Source of the DNA: Marispirochaeta sp.
Lineage (GTDB): Bacteria; Spirochaetota; Spirochaetia; JC444; Marispirochaetaceae
Direction of reading: 5' to 3'
Assembly (NCBI GenBank): GCA_963676835.2
Contig: CAXXFF010000002.1
Location: forward strand, 1,088,001-1,152,000
DNA length: 64,000 nucleotides
In this document: positions 20,079 to 27,642 of the stretch, in pieces
How positions within the stretch are numbered: position 1 is the first letter of the stretch
Layout of the letters: every line of letters starts with the position of its first letter
Made by a program: the position numbers and the translations under genes
Notes under the pieces: model-generated
Seen by the model: the letters and a program-made list of their open reading frames with translations, nothing else
Told to the model about the DNA's origin: nothing
The model's database searches: none

Positions 20079-20236
20079 GAATGCATGATAGGATGGTGGG
20101 TGCCGGGAGGTCAAGTTTCCGGAAAGAGACAGATTTATGTGGTACCCTGTGGAGTGTTTCCTTTTTTTCAGACATCTGATAGTCTGTTTGCCAACCTTGA
20201 GTCGGCCTATGGCCGAGTAGCAAAGGAGTCGTATTG

Positions 20237-23200
20237 ATGCAGAACAGGATTTCTCCTGAGAACCTACAATATTTTTTATCTTTATATACCAGCATGTTTA
20301 CAGCCCGGGAAATAGACCGGATTGAAGAGAGTTACACCCAGCGGGGAGAAGCCTTTTTTCATGTTTCCGGCGCGGGACATGAGGCCATAGCTGCACTTGC
20401 GCAGCATCTTACTCCCGAAGACTGGCTTCACTGTCACTATCGGGATAAATCCCTGATGCTTGCCCGGGGCATGGATGCATCCATGTTCTTTCATGCACTC
20501 TTCAATAAAGATGCTTCCCACTCCCGTGGGCGCCAGATGAATGCTCATATGAGTGACCCGGCACTCAACATCCTCAGCCTGGTAGGCCCTGTGGGCAATT
20601 CGGGACTGCAGGCAGCCGGTGTAGCCCAGGCTGTGAAGGATAATGCAGGCAGTCCGGTTGTTCTCTGCTCTCTGGGGGATGGAATGAGCCAGCAGGGGGA
20701 TGTGCTGGAAGCTATTGCCCATTCTGTCCGGGCTGAGCTTCCGGTTCTCTATGTAATTCAGGATAACGGTTTTGCCATATCCACCCGTACCGGCGGCAAT
20801 ACCTTCTACCGTACTCCCGACGGACTGGCAGACAGCTTTTACGGTATCCCCATTACCCATTTCGACGGCCGTAACGCGGTGGAAGCCGACCGGGTTTTTA
20901 AAGAGACGGTTGAAAAGATGCGCAGCGATCGCCGCCCTGCTATTCTTATAATGCAGGTGGAGCGGCTTTCCAGCCATACCAATGCCGATGATCAGCGTGT
21001 TTACAGAAGCGAGGACGAGATTGAAGCAGCCCGCAGTACCGGTGATCCCGTGGCTATTTTGCGGGGACTTCTGCTTGAGGCAGGTGCTTCTGAGGATGAG
21101 TTTGAAGAGAAAGAGGCAGAAATACGCAAGGAGCTCGAACAGGCTGCCAGAGAGAGTCAGCTTGGACCTGAGCCTGCGGCGGTTCACGACGCAGTTAAGC
21201 CCTATCCGGAGAGCCTGAAGGCGGTTGGTGAGATAAGTGCCGTCGACGGTGAGGGTGATCCTCATACAATGATTGAAACCCTGAGGGAAACCCTTTCTAT
21301 GCGGATGGCCGATGATGAGCGGGTTATCCTTTTCGGTGAAGATATTGAAGACCCCAAAGGCGACGTTTTCGGCGTTACCCGGGGTCTTTCGCAAAAATAT
21401 CCCGGCAGGGTGATCAACTCCCCTCTGGCCGAAGCTTCCATTGCGGGAATATCCGGCGGACAGGCTCTGGCGGGAAAACGCCCGGTGGCTTTCCTGCAGT
21501 TTGCCGACTTCCTGCCCATCGCCTTCAACCAGATTATTTCCGAGCTGGGAAGTATGTACTGGAGAACCGACGGCGGCTGGGAGACGCCGGTAATTGTAAT
21601 GATCTCCTGCGGCGGCTATAAGCCCGGCCTGGGACCCTTTCATGCCCAGTCCATGGACGGCGTTGCGGTACATACCCCGGGTGTTGATGTTTTTATGCCC
21701 TCCCGGGCGGATGATGCGGCGGCCCTTCTGAATGCAGCCTTTGCATCGGAGCGGCCAACCCTCTTTTTCTATCCGAAAAATCTGCTGAACAGCCGTGATT
21801 TTGCCACAAAAAAAGATCCTGCCCAGCTGCTGCTCTCTCCCGGTAAAGCCCGGACTGTACGGGAAGGTTCTGATATTACCCTCATCGGCTGGGGAAACAC
21901 GGTGGTGCACTGTACCAGAGCTGCTGAATCCCTTGCCGCGGCCGGTGCTTCTGCGGAGGTTATTGACCTGAGAACCCTTGCTCCCTGGGACAAGGAGGCG
22001 GTTATTGCTTCTGCGTCCAAAACCGGCAAGGTAATCGTTGTTCATGAAGACAACCACAGCGCCGGCATGGGAGCTGAAGTTATCAGTACCATAGCGGAAG
22101 GCTGCAGTACTCCGGTGGAATGCCGCAGAGTAACCCGGGGCGATACCTTTGTTCCCTGTAACTTTGCCAACCAGCTTGAAGTTCTGCCAAGTTACAGCAG
22201 GGTACTTGAGGCTGCAGTGGATATGCTGGGCGGTTCTATTGTCTGGAAGAAAGAGGAAGATGAATCCGGCGAGCTCTATGGTCTTGAAGCTGTGGGCTCC
22301 AGTCCTTCCGATGAGGTTGCCACCATTATTGAATGGTTGGTGAAAGAGGGTGACTCCATTGAGGAAGGTCAGGAAGTTGCCGAACTCGAGGCGGATAAAG
22401 CCATGATCACCCTGTCCAGTCCGGTAGCCGGTGTTATCAGTTCCATCGATGTCCCCGATGGTGAGTCGGTGAATGTCGGTACGGTGATTGCAAAAGTCCG
22501 GCTTCCTCAAGGGTCGGTACGGATCAAACCTATTACCCGGGAAGAGCCGGGCACACCCGAAATCAGCGGCCTGAAAACCGGCCCCGCTGCTGCAGGTCCG
22601 GTGATGCAGACCGGAGCAGTGGCAGCCATTGCCGGTGTCCGCAGTTCTCTTGGCGGCAGATTGGTCTCCAATAAAGAGATTTCTGAACTCTGCCCCACCT
22701 GGAGTGAGGCAGACATAGTAAAGAGAACAGGTATACAGGAGCGTCACTGGGTTGGAGAAGGGGAGAATGCTGTAACCCTTACCACCGATGCCGCTTCGAA
22801 GTTGCTGGATGATATGAACATAGGTGTGGAAGAGATCGATCTGATAATCTGTTCCACCACAACTCCCTTTATGAATACTCCTGCTCTGGCAACCATGGTA
22901 CAGTATGAGCTGAATAAGAAATATGGAGCCGACTGCAGCTGTGCTGCCTACGATATAAATGCCGCCTGTTCAGGCTATGTCTACGGCTTGCAGATTGCCT
23001 ATGACTATCTGGCCCAGCGGCCGGCTGAGAAAGTGCTGGTGCTTACGGCGGATGTACTTTCCGACCGTATAGATACCGCAGATCCTTCCACTGCCCCGGT
23101 ATTCGGCGACGGTGCCAGTGCAAGCCTTGTGGTTGGATCAGGACTGATCGGATCAATAGGTAAACTTGAAGTTAAGCGGCCGGTGCTCTCTGCAAAGGGT

Positions 23201-23584
23201 GAAGACGGATCACTGCTGCGCATTCCGAAAGATCCCTCGGAACCGGTATTTATGGAAGGGCCAGAGGTTTTCCGCAAGGCGGTTTCCGCCATGGCAGAGA
23301 TTCTCAAGGATGCCTGCAAGGTTGCAGGAGTCAGTCCGGACGAGCTCGATCTGGTTGTTCCCCATCAGGCAAACCAGCGGATTATCGATGCGGTACGGCA
23401 GAAGCTCAGGGCGGATAAGAGCAAAGTTTACAGTCTTATTTCCGGCATCGGGAATATCTCCTCTTCAACCATTCCGTTCTGTCTGGAACGGCTGCTTGAA
23501 GAGAAACCGGAAACTGAGCTTCTCGGCCTTACAGCCTTCGGCGGCGGGTTTACCTTTGCCGGCGGAGTGTTGAAGAAAATCTGA
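20237..23584 (+). CDS. Fusion protein: 2-oxoacid dehydrogenase E1alpha + E1beta + lipoyl domain + FabH (KAS III)
   Basis: TPP motif GDG..DN, RLSSHT..DD; E1beta FGEDI, SPLAE, QFADF, GPFH; lipoyl EADKA; KAS III AACSG, PHQAN, GNISS, FGGG. Confidence 0.93.
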   Translation: MQNRISPENLQYFLSLYTSMFTAREIDRIEESYTQRGEAFFHVSGAGHEAIAALAQHLTPEDWLHCHYRDKSLMLARGMDASMFFHALFNKDASHSRGRQMNAHMSDPALNILSLVGPVGNSGLQAAGVAQAVKDNAGSPVVLCSLGDGMSQQGDVLEAIAHSVRAELPVLYVIQDNGFAISTRTGGNTFYRTPDGLADSFYGIPITHFDGRNAVEADRVFKETVEKMRSDRRPAILIMQVERLSSHTNADDQRVYRSEDEIEAARSTGDPVAILRGLLLEAGASEDEFEEKEAEIRKELEQAARESQLGPEPAAVHDAVKPYPESLKAVGEISAVDGEGDPHTMIETLRETLSMRMADDERVILFGEDIEDPKGDVFGVTRGLSQKYPGRVINSPLAEASIAGISGGQALAGKRPVAFLQFADFLPIAFNQIISELGSMYWRTDGGWETPVIVMISCGGYKPGLGPFHAQSMDGVAVHTPGVDVFMPSRADDAAALLNAAFASERPTLFFYPKNLLNSRDFATKKDPAQLLLSPGKARTVREGSDITLIGWGNTVVHCTRAAESLAAAGASAEVIDLRTLAPWDKEAVIASASKTGKVIVVHEDNHSAGMGAEVISTIAEGCSTPVECRRVTRGDTFVPCNFANQLEVLPSYSRVLEAAVDMLGGSIVWKKEEDESGELYGLEAVGSSPSDEVATIIEWLVKEGDSIEEGQEVAELEADKAMITLSSPVAGVISSIDVPDGESVNVGTVIAKVRLPQGSVRIKPITREEPGTPEISGLKTGPAAAGPVMQTGAVAAIAGVRSSLGGRLVSNKEISELCPTWSEADIVKRTGIQERHWVGEGENAVTLTTDAASKLLDDMNIGVEEIDLIICSTTTPFMNTPALATMVQYELNKKYGADCSCAAYDINAACSGYVYGLQIAYDYLAQRPAEKVLVLTADVLSDRIDTADPSTAPVFGDGASASLVVGSGLIGSIGKLEVKRPVLSAKGEDGSLLRIPKDPSEPVFMEGPEVFRKAVSAMAEILKDACKVAGVSPDELDLVVPHQANQRIIDAVRQKLRADKSKVYSLISGIGNISSSTIPFCLERLLEEKPETELLGLTAFGGGFTFAGGVLKKI

Positions 23585-25426
23585 TTATTCTGAAGCTGCG
23601 GGCTGGAGATTCCGTATTATGCGGATCTCCTGCCTGGTGGCTCTGTGGCGTATTTTGAAGAAAAGTGTTTTGCTGCGTACATCGTAGACCCATCCGTCGC
23701 TGTAGCGCTGAAACTCCGGATCACTCTTCCATGGAATTCCATGCATCTGAATCTGGTCGAAGGGTTCAACATTAAACACCGCAAAATGGTGAATTCCGCC
23801 CTGGGGAAACTGAAATGAAAGCACCGAGGTATTTCCCGGCTGAAACCGTACATTTGCCGCGGTGGTCCACATCCACTCCCGGCCGGCACCGAGGTCGATA
23901 ACCCTGGGTGTATAGGATGACTCCCGGTACATTCTCAACAGATTCTCAAAGGTTTCCGGCTCCAGTACCGAAGCAGATTCCCTGGTGGCAAACTCTGTCA
24001 TTTCGTAGCCCGCAGGCATTCTGCCGTACTCACCGGAGGAGCGGACTGCAGAAAGGAGCAGCCCGTATCCGATGGAGCGGGTAAGGGAGTCTTCGCTTTC
24101 ATGCATCAGTTTCCCTGCCTTGACATTAACCCGGGTATCGCTTCCGTCTGCCAGGTGGATGCCGTAGCTGTCATCACCGGTGGGGCAGATTCTGGGCAGA
24201 AGAATTTCCCGTATAAGAAATCTGATTGCAGGGTTGTCAGTACTTCCCCGGTTCAGCAGGAACTCTCCTGCATTCAAGGCAAGAATCAATGCCCTATCGT
24301 CAGCGGGCTCTTCCAGGATGACTTTCTCGGCGGTCTCTTCCAGAGACTTCAGTGCTGCAGTTGCTTCGGGTGTTCCGGAGGCGATGAAAATTTCCAGCAG
24401 TTCCGGATCGGCAAAGACATCGGGGCTGCCGTCCACCGCAGCAGAAATGGTTTGTATGGTAAAGCTCCGGACTGAATCGCCGAAGGATTTCAGCGGATCA
24501 ACCACGGAACCGAGATAGAGGGCGCTGGTTCGGTCTATAAGCCGTGGACTGCCTTCGGCAAGGCGGTTTCTGGTCTGCAGGTAGGTTCCCCGGTACAGGG
24601 ATTCCAGCAGCATGGCAGACGCGGTGGTCCCTTCTCCGGGGGCATCTGCGGCGTATTCCCAGGAGCCCGCTGCTGCAAGCCAGCGCTCTTTGTTCCATCC
24701 CTGCCAGGCTGTTTCTGCCAGCCGGGCGAGGGCAGACTCGAGGGTATCTTTATTTCCGGGGAAGGGATGTATATCGAACCAGACCCGGATAAGGGATTCA
24801 TCATCTTTGGGATTGAGAAAGCGTACTTCCTGAGGCTCTGCTCTTCTGGGGATTGAAACCCTAGAGTCAGTTACCCGGGTGTAAGGACTGAAGGACGCCA
24901 CACCTCCGGAACTTCCGGTACGGGATGCCCTGAGTATCGGAAGGCCGGTATGGACGGAGGCTTCCGCTCCTGTCCAGGGCAGGCGAATACCGCTGATGGT
25001 CTCATCCTTCACTGCGCTGAAGTCGACACTCATGGTGTAGCCGGCACTGTCTGTATCAGATTCGTTTATGGTAAAGCTTATCCCCGACAGAAAAATAATT
25101 TTTATGGTACTGCTTGTCCGGTCAATTTTTGTTATCGAGGCCTGAGACTCACTTCCGTCGGCATGCACCAGCACTCCTGCGCCGTTTTCGGGAAAATCCA
25201 GAGAAAAGCTGCGGTACTTGAGGGTAAACGAACGGTAGGCTGCACCTTTTCCGGGCAGCAGACCTCCTGCGACCCCTGCTGTCTGCCGGGCGGAAATGCT
25301 CATCTCTCCCAGGGTATATCGTACCGGACGGGTTTCGCCGAATTCCCGGTAGAGAAGACCGCCGATAATGAGAGCATAGACAACAAGCACAAGATAGTAG
25401 GCCGGTTTTACCCTGGTTTCACGCAT
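23585..25426 (-). CDS. Hypothetical membrane-anchored protein
   Basis: 613-aa ORF with one N-terminal TM; promoter TTGCCT-17-TACAAT lies 6 nt before the ATG. Confidence 0.75.
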   Translation of the reverse strand: MRETRVKPAYYLVLVVYALIIGGLLYREFGETRPVRYTLGEMSISARQTAGVAGGLLPGKGAAYRSFTLKYRSFSLDFPENGAGVLVHADGSESQASITKIDRTSSTIKIIFLSGISFTINESDTDSAGYTMSVDFSAVKDETISGIRLPWTGAEASVHTGLPILRASRTGSSGGVASFSPYTRVTDSRVSIPRRAEPQEVRFLNPKDDESLIRVWFDIHPFPGNKDTLESALARLAETAWQGWNKERWLAAAGSWEYAADAPGEGTTASAMLLESLYRGTYLQTRNRLAEGSPRLIDRTSALYLGSVVDPLKSFGDSVRSFTIQTISAAVDGSPDVFADPELLEIFIASGTPEATAALKSLEETAEKVILEEPADDRALILALNAGEFLLNRGSTDNPAIRFLIREILLPRICPTGDDSYGIHLADGSDTRVNVKAGKLMHESEDSLTRSIGYGLLLSAVRSSGEYGRMPAGYEMTEFATRESASVLEPETFENLLRMYRESSYTPRVIDLGAGREWMWTTAANVRFQPGNTSVLSFQFPQGGIHHFAVFNVEPFDQIQMHGIPWKSDPEFQRYSDGWVYDVRSKTLFFKIRHRATRQEIRIIRNLQPAASE

Positions 25427-25470: not shown

Positions 25471-27642
25471 TTATTTATCCCGTGAGCCGTTGAGCAGCTG
25501 GTAGGTGAAGAAGAGCCGGGCAAGGGATGTGGATACCGTCTGTAAATCAGCAGGTTCCCTGCTGAGAGAGACGGCCTCCGGAAGGTCACTCAGGCCGAAT
25601 TCCTTGAGAACCCTGCTGCACCAGCTTACCAGTTTTCCGTGTTCTGCCCGGAGACAGAGTTCCTTAAGCTGCTCCGCCTGATCGAAGAAGGGCTGGAAGG
25701 AGCGGGCTTCTTCCATTATCAGTCTGAGACCGGCACCGGATTCACCGTTTTCCCTGCTGTAGATCCAGTCCAGTCTGGGGTTGTATTCATCCAGTGCTGC
25801 TGCCAGGGAGAGGATATTCTGCTGATGATATACACCACGTTCTGCAGGCACAATCTGAAACAGCCTGCTCAGGTACCGTGTCCGTTCTCCGGCTACCGAA
25901 AGAGCAACCATAATATCGAGAATAGCCCGGGTCGGGTGACCGGGAATGCTGAGTACTTTTTCGAGCTCCTCCGGGTTTGATGGATTTCCTGTCCGGGCCA
26001 GAGACTTGGCAGCAGCTGCAGATATCCTGGGATCCTTGCTGGAAAAGAGCCGGTTCAAAGCATCAACTCCGGCACTGTCCGGATAGGCTCCCAGGGCAAA
26101 AATCGCACTTTGCTGCTGGGGTGACTCTCGGTTTTCCGCTTCCCTGATAATAAGGGGAAGCAGTCCCGGGCGGGGATTGGTAAAAAGGGATATAAGAATC
26201 TGCTCTTTTTCCGGGGCAATGGGGTTGTCCAGTATCTGCCGCAACTGGGGTTCCGCGTGGGGGGTGGGCGCGTAGTTCAGTGCGGTGAGGATTGTCTGCC
26301 GCTTTACCGGGTTATCGGTAAGGTGGAAGTTGTATATATCCATAAAGGTTTTAAAGTTTCTCGGAGAGAAGATAATGTTCGCGGTTTCTCTCATCCCCAG
26401 GCTGCCGTAATCCCGCACCGAAAGAACCAGAATCAGTGAAAGCCCGCAGTAGGCGGCCCCGGCAAAAAAGGTGAGGGTATACGAGGAGCCTACAGGCAGG
26501 GATATCTTCTCATTCAGGTCGATCAGGATACCGCCAATGAGGCCGGTGAGAAAGGCAAAGAGGGCAGTGAGAAAGTTGAGGAGCGACATGAAGCTGATCT
26601 TGTCGTGGGAGGGAATCACATTAAGCACCAGCCGGGCAACCAGCTGGTAGGTGGCGGCCTGCAGAAAAGTTGTTGCAAAACCGAGGAGAAGAAAAACTCC
26701 CAGGGGAGAATTGTTCAGAATACCCCAGAGCAGGAAGGTAATGCCCTGGCCGATAAATGCTGCCAAAAGCAGGGGCTTTGAGCCTATGCTGTCCATAATG
26801 GGGCGCAGAAAAAGGCCGCTTACCATCATGCCGAAGGTTCCCACCACGGAGAAGAGAAAAACCATGTTCTGGGGGTAATCGGCAACCACCCGCAGAAAAG
26901 GAACAGCAAAACCGATAAGAACCGCCGCAGAGAGGCTGAAGCAGCGGATAAGAATAACCAGAATCTGTTCCCTGTTTTTTACCGCCCGGGCAAAAACCTT
27001 GATAAGGCTGTTTCCCTTCTGGTAGCGGCTCTTTTCTCTGAAAGGTATCTTCATTAAAAAGAGGGCTGCAATGGTATTGGCGAATATACCCAGGCCGATA
27101 AGAATCAGCAGACCGTTGAGGTTGTTGAAATAGGCGAAGGAGGTAAGACCGTAGCTGAGCAGCTGGCTGACCAGACGGGCGGACTGGTTGCTGATAAAAA
27201 GCTGGGCGACAAAGCGTCCCCTTGTTTCGGTGGTTACCAGCATCTGCTGTACCGGTTCCGCCATGGAGGCGCCTATTATACGGAAAATACAGAATACCGC
27301 GTAGACTGCCAGGATGATTGCAACAGCCGTCTGCCCCCGGGTGAAGAGAACCAGAAAATAGAAAAGACTGGCGGCTCCCCGGAACATCCAGGATGCGTAA
27401 AACATCTTGTTCAGGTTGATTTCATTGCTTATACGGGGAAGGATCAGCACCACCAGCCCTGCAATATGAACGGCGGAAGAAATAAAGCCCAGCTCGGTGT
27501 TGGTGGGATTGAACTGCAGCGCCAGCAGATAAATGATGGTTTCCGCAAGGAATCCGTATCCGAGGCCGTTGAATAGTGCATGTCCCAGCATAAGCCGGGA
27601 GCCCCGCTCCCGCTCTTCCCGGGTAAGGAAATCAGTTATCAT
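25471..27642 (-). CDS. MFS transporter fused to a C-terminal HEAT-repeat domain
   Basis: About 410 aa with 12 TMs, then helical repeats (SAIFALGA, AAAAKSLAR). Confidence 0.8.
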   Translation of the reverse strand: MITDFLTREERERGSRLMLGHALFNGLGYGFLAETIIYLLALQFNPTNTELGFISSAVHIAGLVVLILPRISNEINLNKMFYASWMFRGAASLFYFLVLFTRGQTAVAIILAVYAVFCIFRIIGASMAEPVQQMLVTTETRGRFVAQLFISNQSARLVSQLLSYGLTSFAYFNNLNGLLILIGLGIFANTIAALFLMKIPFREKSRYQKGNSLIKVFARAVKNREQILVILIRCFSLSAAVLIGFAVPFLRVVADYPQNMVFLFSVVGTFGMMVSGLFLRPIMDSIGSKPLLLAAFIGQGITFLLWGILNNSPLGVFLLLGFATTFLQAATYQLVARLVLNVIPSHDKISFMSLLNFLTALFAFLTGLIGGILIDLNEKISLPVGSSYTLTFFAGAAYCGLSLILVLSVRDYGSLGMRETANIIFSPRNFKTFMDIYNFHLTDNPVKRQTILTALNYAPTPHAEPQLRQILDNPIAPEKEQILISLFTNPRPGLLPLIIREAENRESPQQQSAIFALGAYPDSAGVDALNRLFSSKDPRISAAAAKSLARTGNPSNPEELEKVLSIPGHPTRAILDIMVALSVAGERTRYLSRLFQIVPAERGVYHQQNILSLAAALDEYNPRLDWIYSRENGESGAGLRLIMEEARSFQPFFDQAEQLKELCLRAEHGKLVSWCSRVLKEFGLSDLPEAVSLSREPADLQTVSTSLARLFFTYQLLNGSRDK

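Follow-up and report, generated by a model that had tools for sequence, protein, structure and literature searches.

What is made by a protein that joins both halves of a 2-oxoacid dehydrogenase E1 component, a lipoyl domain and a β-ketoacyl-ACP synthase III (KAS III) in one chain, and where does its condensing enzyme obtain its primer? The question is raised by a gene in a 64,000-nt stretch of Marispirochaeta sp. DNA (contig CAXXFF010000002.1, positions 1,088,001 – 1,152,000 of the forward strand; hereafter the window). The gene (20237 – 23584, plus strand) encodes 1115 aa in a single open reading frame (ORF) with a terminal stop and none internal. Pfam searches of the protein returned E1_dh (aa 18 – 313, E 6e-42), Transket_pyr (344 – 518), Transketolase_C (536 – 647), Biotin_lipoyl (695 – 753, 1e-18), ACP_syn_III (905 – 967) and ACP_syn_III_C (1028 – 1113); neither the E2 core (PF00198) nor an E3-binding domain was among the nine families reported. 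An AlphaFold model (pLDDT 82.9, pTM 0.64), used only to confirm domain folds, contained the expected domains with flexible joints, and by Foldseek the KAS part matched solved FabH, and the E1beta part the solved beta subunit of branched-chain 2-oxoacid dehydrogenase (BCKDH), at TM about 0.9. An earlier note, made from the sequence alone, had described an uninterrupted ORF with a thiamine pyrophosphate (TPP) motif, E1beta motifs, a lipoyl Lys and a KAS triad; Pfam and sequence bore this out, and its coordinates were exact (22397 for K721 in EADK, 22967 for C911, 23363 for H1043, 23453 for N1073).

The fusion is probably a self-contained branched-chain fatty-acid initiator with direct transfer of the acyl group from lipoyl arm to KAS. 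On TPP, the fused E1 would decarboxylate a branched 2-oxoacid derived from Val, Leu or Ile, then load the resulting acyl group onto its own lipoyl-Lys721. The arm would then hand the acyl group directly to Cys911 of a KAS III predicted no longer to bind the adenine of coenzyme A (CoA), and the KAS would condense it with malonyl-acyl carrier protein (malonyl-ACP, from FabD) to a branched 3-oxoacyl-ACP for type II fatty-acid synthesis (FAS II). An E3 borrowed from another complex would re-oxidise the arm, and housekeeping FabH would continue to start straight chains from acetyl-CoA. The fusion would act as a homodimer, since E1 and KAS III are both two-fold symmetric. The evidence leans, less firmly, towards a wider proposal: that S-acyl-dihydrolipoyl-lysine rather than acyl-CoA is the KAS III primer donor, that one gene gives Gram-negative bacteria branched lipids and explains the iso acids of rhizobia and Pontiella, and that the acceptor (E2, KAS III, thioesterase or polyketide synthase (PKS)) is swappable.

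The KAS III module (aa 796 – 1113; 22622 – 23575, plus strand) carries the triad Cys911, His1043 and Asn1073, of which the His and Asn are needed in KAS III for malonyl decarboxylation, and Arg1048 (23378), the equivalent of FabH Arg249, presumably the ACP-docking residue. In FabH, the CoA adenine is hydrogen-bonded to Thr28 and sandwiched between Trp32 and Arg151, as given in the available text of PMC4606726. These three positions were occupied in the fusion by W822, D826 (22712 – 22714) and P950 (23084 – 23086), with loss of the adenine stacking by alignment. In a set of 98 fusion domains, made up of the query, 59 GTDB loci and 38 cluster representatives with a few duplicates among them, Trp32 was found in 2/98, Arg151 in 2/98 and both together in 0/98, with Asp or Glu at position 32 in 73/98. 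The catalytic Cys (98/98), His (97/98) and Asn (98/98) were kept, as were Asn at the pantetheine-binding position 247 (92/98) and Arg or Lys at 249 (96/98). Housekeeping FabHs from the same genomes kept Thr28, Trp32 and Arg151 in 30/30, these controls having the highest scores against the FabH model, a choice that favours canonical residues. The pattern fits a condensing enzyme that would bind malonyl-ACP and take its primer from a non-CoA donor; with neither clamp nor E2 in the protein, the acyl-CoA step appears to be skipped. The KAS domain scored 231 bits against the TIGR00747 cut-off of 292 and 259.5 against the NF006829 cut-off of 249, and was 30% identical to the same genome's own FabH. 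The equivalent of FabH Phe87 was Thr or Ser in 83/98 fusions and Phe or Tyr in 27/30 housekeeping FabHs; this exchange was rejected as a branched-chain determinant because S. aureus FabH retains Phe.

The E1alpha module (TPP-binding, aa 18 – 313; 20288 – 21175, plus strand) was compared with solved enzymes, and its best matches were BCKDHs (Thermus 1um9_A, 1e-36; human 1dtw_A, 1e-29), with pyruvate dehydrogenase (PDH) at 4e-25 or weaker. The best solved match of E1beta (domains aa 344 – 647; 21266 – 22177, plus strand) was Thermus BCKDH beta (E 2.7e-61). The motif GRQM-x-x-H (aa 98 – 104; 20528 – 20548) is common to the fusion and BCKDH alpha, and the other three alpha/beta-type E1s of the same genome have G-x-GGSMH at this site (GKGGSMH in PDH); a motif script classified 7/14 E1 loci. 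F41, Y68, M101 and H104 of the fusion align with Thermus BCKDH F66, Y95, M128 and H131, which presumably line the branched substrate pocket. The TPP/Mg motif G147-D-G...N177 (20675 – 20767), the active-loop His247 (20975 – 20977; aligned with BCKDH and presumably acting in reductive acylation), and the catalytic Glu399 (21431) and His469 (21641) of E1beta were kept in 97 – 98 of 98 diverse homologues (G147 in 97, the other four in 98). By these residues and matches, the fused E1 is BCKDH-type, not PDH-type. Position 104 was His in only 58/98 homologues and Phe in 29. Phe is the residue in the Pontiella copies (P0470, P0505), His in those of rhizobia and spirochaetes; the iso acids of Pontiella are even-numbered, whereas rhizobia make iso-C15. 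Speculatively, residue 104 may be a valine/leucine selectivity switch.

The lipoyl domain (about aa 680 – 756; 22274 – 22504, plus strand; all-beta in the model) presents Lys721 (22397) in EADKA. This Lys was kept in 97/98 homologues and is predicted to be lipoylated. Between the arm and the KAS lies an Ala/Pro/Gly-rich linker (22505 – 22621, plus strand; pLDDT <50 at aa 783 – 792) in which Pfam found no E3-binding domain; its length was 28 – 97 aa (median 43) across the 98 homologues.

In a FastTree phylogeny of E1 (95 rows), the KAS fusions formed one clade (1.0), and their nearest relatives were single-chain E1-lipoyl-E2 proteins (0.88; wider group 0.998) with the same three N-terminal modules at 34 – 40% identity. 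The sister lineage places the KAS in the E2 slot. Within the clade the last domain had been swapped for E2 (P0154, P0173), a thioesterase (P0151) or E2-ACP-PKS-NRPS (P0184; NRPS, non-ribosomal peptide synthetase); in P0132 the KAS was extended by ketoreductase-ACP, and P0144 ended in a domain with no Pfam match, GNAT-like by eye. These exchanges suggest that the acyl-lipoyl arm delivers to whichever domain comes last, and the E1-lipoyl unit has the look of a portable module for acyl loading. The earlier note had held that FabH replaces the E2 catalytic core and takes the acyl group from acyl-dihydrolipoamide; family-wide loss of the clamp residues, the E1-lipoyl-E2 sister relation and the conserved lipoyl Lys all support this, the direct transfer itself being inferred from them. 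Single-chain E1alpha-E1beta-lipoyl-E2 proteins (~1000 – 1230 aa) were seen in P0179, P0182, P0192, P0193, P0194, P0202, P0207, P0210, P0228 and P0204, the last with a C-terminal ACP; such proteins are unnamed in the sources checked.

A homologue search scored 8000 candidates, of which 1520 matched at E<=1e-50. Of the non-self matches listed, 118/119 were full length at 53 – 74% identity, and all four domains were present in 440/459 retrieved proteins >1000 aa; a domain-architecture search had been proposed in the note. A same-genus genome encoded the fusion at 93% identity over all 1115 aa, and the closest named relative was the annotated Marispirochaeta aestuarii protein (74% cluster). Among the matches listed, GTDB loci fell in Spirochaetota, Planctomycetota, Verrucomicrobiota, Sumerlaeota and Actinomycetota and in Rhizobium, Devosia, Methylococcaceae, Cysteiniphilum and Neisseriaceae, complete chromosomes included. 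The fusion was present in 44/151 sampled Spirochaetia genomes, with one copy broken (G056:C1, fragmented with stops at 813825 – 817278; a second partial copy lies at 1146697 – 1148889). No neighbour family was common to more than 9/67 loci, and those that recurred reflected lineage synteny; the gene thus travels alone, and a gene-cluster role was rejected. Database annotations name the proteins for one half or the other. This is a real, widespread and apparently uncharacterised enzyme family.

The host genome (97% complete) supplies what the proposed route would require. PDH, 2-oxoglutarate dehydrogenase (OGDH) and acetoin-type complexes were each encoded in their own operons with E2 and E3. 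LipA, three LipB/LplA-family genes, ACP, IlvC and an IlvE-like enzyme were found, and the fab operon was normal by ORF order and family matches, FabH included. The genome thus provides for lipoylation, re-oxidation of the arm, and a supply of both malonyl-ACP and branched 2-oxoacids. The absence of E2 and E3 stated in the earlier note held for the window. Operons elsewhere in the genome, where the note had proposed to look for an E3, encode three E2 cores and three E3s; E3 was examined in the host genome only. That the window contains no E2 is consequently no evidence, and with E2, E3 and a normal FabH elsewhere the fusion would be an accessory second initiator. LipA was found in 39/40 spirochaete carriers and 47/80 non-carriers (the first 80 of 107), related genomes not being independent. 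The idea that the fusion is a genome's only FabH was rejected, as 55/61 carriers had a stand-alone FabH above cut-off; it was the sole match in 5 only. In the Cysteiniphilum litorale genome, E1_dh matches were confined to a SucA-sized frame and the fusion. Divergent from the host fab operon lies an 1833-aa ORF with a biotin/lipoyl-like match (G000:C3:51041-56542, minus strand), probably a single-chain acyl-CoA carboxylase, and the host also has a PKS/carrier-protein cluster (G000:C4:554578-562844; KS, AT and four PP-binding matches).

Fatty-acid profiles were compared with carriage. The fusion was found in 25/91 Rhizobium genomes and in none of 120 other Rhizobiaceae-family genomes. When 80 Rhizobium genomes (all 25 carriers and 55/66 non-carriers) were ranked by fabH DNA identity, the 24 carriers of a close copy took exactly ranks 1 – 24. 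Named carriers (R. rhizogenes, lusitanum, miluonense, leucaenae, paranaense, jaguaris and dioscoreae) all belong to the tropici-rhizogenes clade. The 25th carrier, outside that clade, has a Devosia-like copy (56 – 59%; G297:C44:165301-166233; P0288), which suggests separate acquisition and makes its fatty acids a natural test case. In the part of PMC13077888 available, the 2026 tropici-rhizogenes genus description lists iso-C15:0 3-OH, and the lists for three other genera name no iso acid. Canonical proteobacterial BCKDH was scored in 18/25 carriers and 48/55 non-carriers, with 0 positives in 14 controls, and so does not separate the Rhizobium groups. Pontiella desulfatans and P. sulfatireligans (both type strains) carry the fusion, and the accessible text of PMC7356697 gives i-C12:0, i-C14:0 and i-C18:0 as major acids of both. 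The earlier note's "possibly branched-chain" gains from the iso acids of these two carrier lineages, together with the BCKDH-type E1 motifs. Cysteiniphilum has anteiso-C15:0. The fatty-acid data of Salinispira and S. africana were left out, the comparison being kept to groups with known carriers.

Several points weigh against direct transfer to a branched product. Among 20 hand-picked divergent stand-alone KAS IIIs, Trp32 and Arg151 were both kept in 7 and the full clamp was lacking in 13, so divergence by itself often erodes the clamp; the housekeeping controls, as said, were chosen in a way that flatters the contrast; and because the fusion KAS domains form one clade (support 0.98), loss of the clamp counts as a single event. 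All 66 carrier handles searched, of which G022 and G153 stand for the same genome, contained an E2 core, so that a route via acyl-CoA is possible, and absence of E2 was abandoned as a test of CoA independence. The E2-bearing relatives show, on domain content, that the E1-lipoyl unit can work with E2, and most carriers possess the stand-alone FabH counted above. The phenotype link is two lineages, not a statistical test, and the Rhizobium comparison is a single clade contrast. Rosistilla and Marinobacter, which include carriers, have mainly straight-chain fatty acids. The Devosiaceae description, in its available part, gives only straight and cyclo major acids and no iso acid (PMC7179689); Devosia carriers exist, and only some Devosia are known carriers.

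The best-surviving alternative, itself unlikely, keeps the lipoyl-to-KAS channel but differs in what enters or leaves it: acetyl or propionyl primers would come from pyruvate or 2-oxobutyrate, or the product would be a minor lipid or ketide of specialised metabolism and not bulk branched fatty acids. Carrier groups lacking described major branched acids (Devosiaceae, in the same partial account, PMC7179689) would suit it, as would a rhizobial marker that, in the available text of PMC13077888, is a 3-OH acid only. The fusion of relatives P0132 and P0184 to PKS or NRPS parts is in keeping with it, and Thr or Ser at the Phe87 equivalent hints at a different acyl pocket. The BCKDH-type E1 pocket argues against it, as do the lack of conserved biosynthetic neighbours at 67 loci and the fact that, for acetyl priming, the host already has PDH and a normal FabH.

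Somewhat less likely again is that fusion serves tethering only, the arm unloading on a host E2 in trans and the fused KAS III using the resulting acyl-CoA as an ordinary FabH. The E2 cores in all the carrier handles searched, three of them in the host, and the clade members P0154 and P0173, with E2 in place of KAS, speak for such a detour, the E1-lipoyl unit being able to feed an E2. Against it stand the joint absence of both clamp residues in all 98 fusions and the mostly acidic position 32; moreover, the host E2s belong to their own PDH, OGDH and acetoin-type operons, and tethering gives no reason for the KAS to have stayed fused across phyla.

In a third alternative, judged improbable, the KAS would act as a transacylase only, passing acyl from lipoyl through Cys to holo-ACP for elongation of the branched acyl-ACP by FabF, free of CoA and without condensation. 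FabH has an acyl:ACP transacylase side activity, which counts for this, as do the E1-lipoyl-E2-ACP relatives P0204 and P0184. An analogy is offered by the acyltransferase domain of QncL, which acts together with an ACP (PMC6335953, available text). Conservation of His1043 and Asn1073 argues for condensation instead. Of these four readings, direct transfer to a branched product and its three rivals, three are CoA-free at the transfer step. An assembly or frame artefact merging two genes, which the earlier note had named as a hazard, had no point in its favour and is dismissed by the occurrence of the same full-length fusion in complete chromosomes and several phyla.

The local setting was also recorded. 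A Shine-Dalgarno-like AGGAG (20224 – 20228, plus strand) lies 8 nt upstream of the ATG at 20237. Reading away from nadE and towards its downstream neighbour, the gene is probably monocistronic. The downstream gene (23585 – 25426, minus strand) encodes a protein of 613 aa that is hydrophobic at its N-terminus and has no match in Pfam; the stops of this gene and the fusion touch with zero gap. It is followed by a 723-aa major facilitator superfamily-type membrane protein joined to HEAT repeats (25471 – 27642, minus strand). An 821-codon antisense frame beneath the fusion (20282 – 22747, minus strand) is probably a shadow ORF.

If direct transfer is right, KAS III would gain a new thioester donor, and cells a branched-lipid route shielded from both amino-acid catabolism and the CoA pool. 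A long-used rhizobial chemotaxonomic marker would then have a one-gene explanation where canonical BCKDH fails to separate the clades, and a single gene turning 2-oxoacids into branched primers would offer a simple way to have E. coli produce branched fatty acids. Labelling by one half in databases hides the pathway. No description of the fusion was found in the literature, in which subscription journals were thinly covered, so an earlier account is possible; FabH goes unmentioned in the genome papers on Pontiella and R. tropici.

Among the closest known systems is the Bacillus/Staphylococcus-type route, in which a BCKDH complex (E1alpha/beta, E2, E3) supplies a FabH that accepts branched acyl-CoA (PMC9328018; bioRxiv 2025.09.03.673897; both in their available parts). 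Shared with it are a BCKDH-type E1, a lipoyl arm, the KAS III Cys-His-Asn triad and, as proposed, the net product, a branched 3-oxoacyl-ACP. Unlike that route, the fusion is one chain with no E2 core, no E3-binding domain and a KAS without the CoA adenine clamp; the complex's own E2 core and E3-binding domain were found neither in the protein by Pfam nor among conserved neighbours at 67 loci. Compared with FabH/KAS III itself (TIGR00747, NF006829), the fused domain has the same fold, triad and Asn247 and Arg249 equivalents, but falls below TIGR00747, does not conserve Thr28, Trp32 or Arg151, and forms a separate clade. The single-chain E1alpha-E1beta-lipoyl-E2 proteins (P0179, P0182, P0192 and others) end in an E2 core with a DHR motif, not in KAS III. 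QncN/QncL/QncM and SclQ1-4, in which a TPP enzyme, lipoyl domain, acyltransferase and ACP deliver a glycolyl unit to an NRPS, likewise have a PDH-like TPP/lipoyl front end feeding a carrier-protein pathway, and QncN/L/M is, on the part of PMC6335953 available, the closest known case of a TPP/lipoyl module that provides such a pathway with acyl units. By the same partial account those systems differ in using ketose phosphates and an E2-type acyltransferase within Streptomyces gene clusters, whereas the fusion has a condensing enzyme as its proposed acceptor and is encoded by a solitary gene; no Qnc-type E2-type acyltransferase, dedicated ACP or NRPS cluster was found in the fusion protein or its conserved neighbours. 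Judged by its domains and CoA-site residues, the fusion would work like BCKDH plus FabH and is a member of neither, having no E2 core and a KAS that lacks the CoA-site residues of FabH, and the sequence evidence that acyl transfer is coupled in a new way is good.

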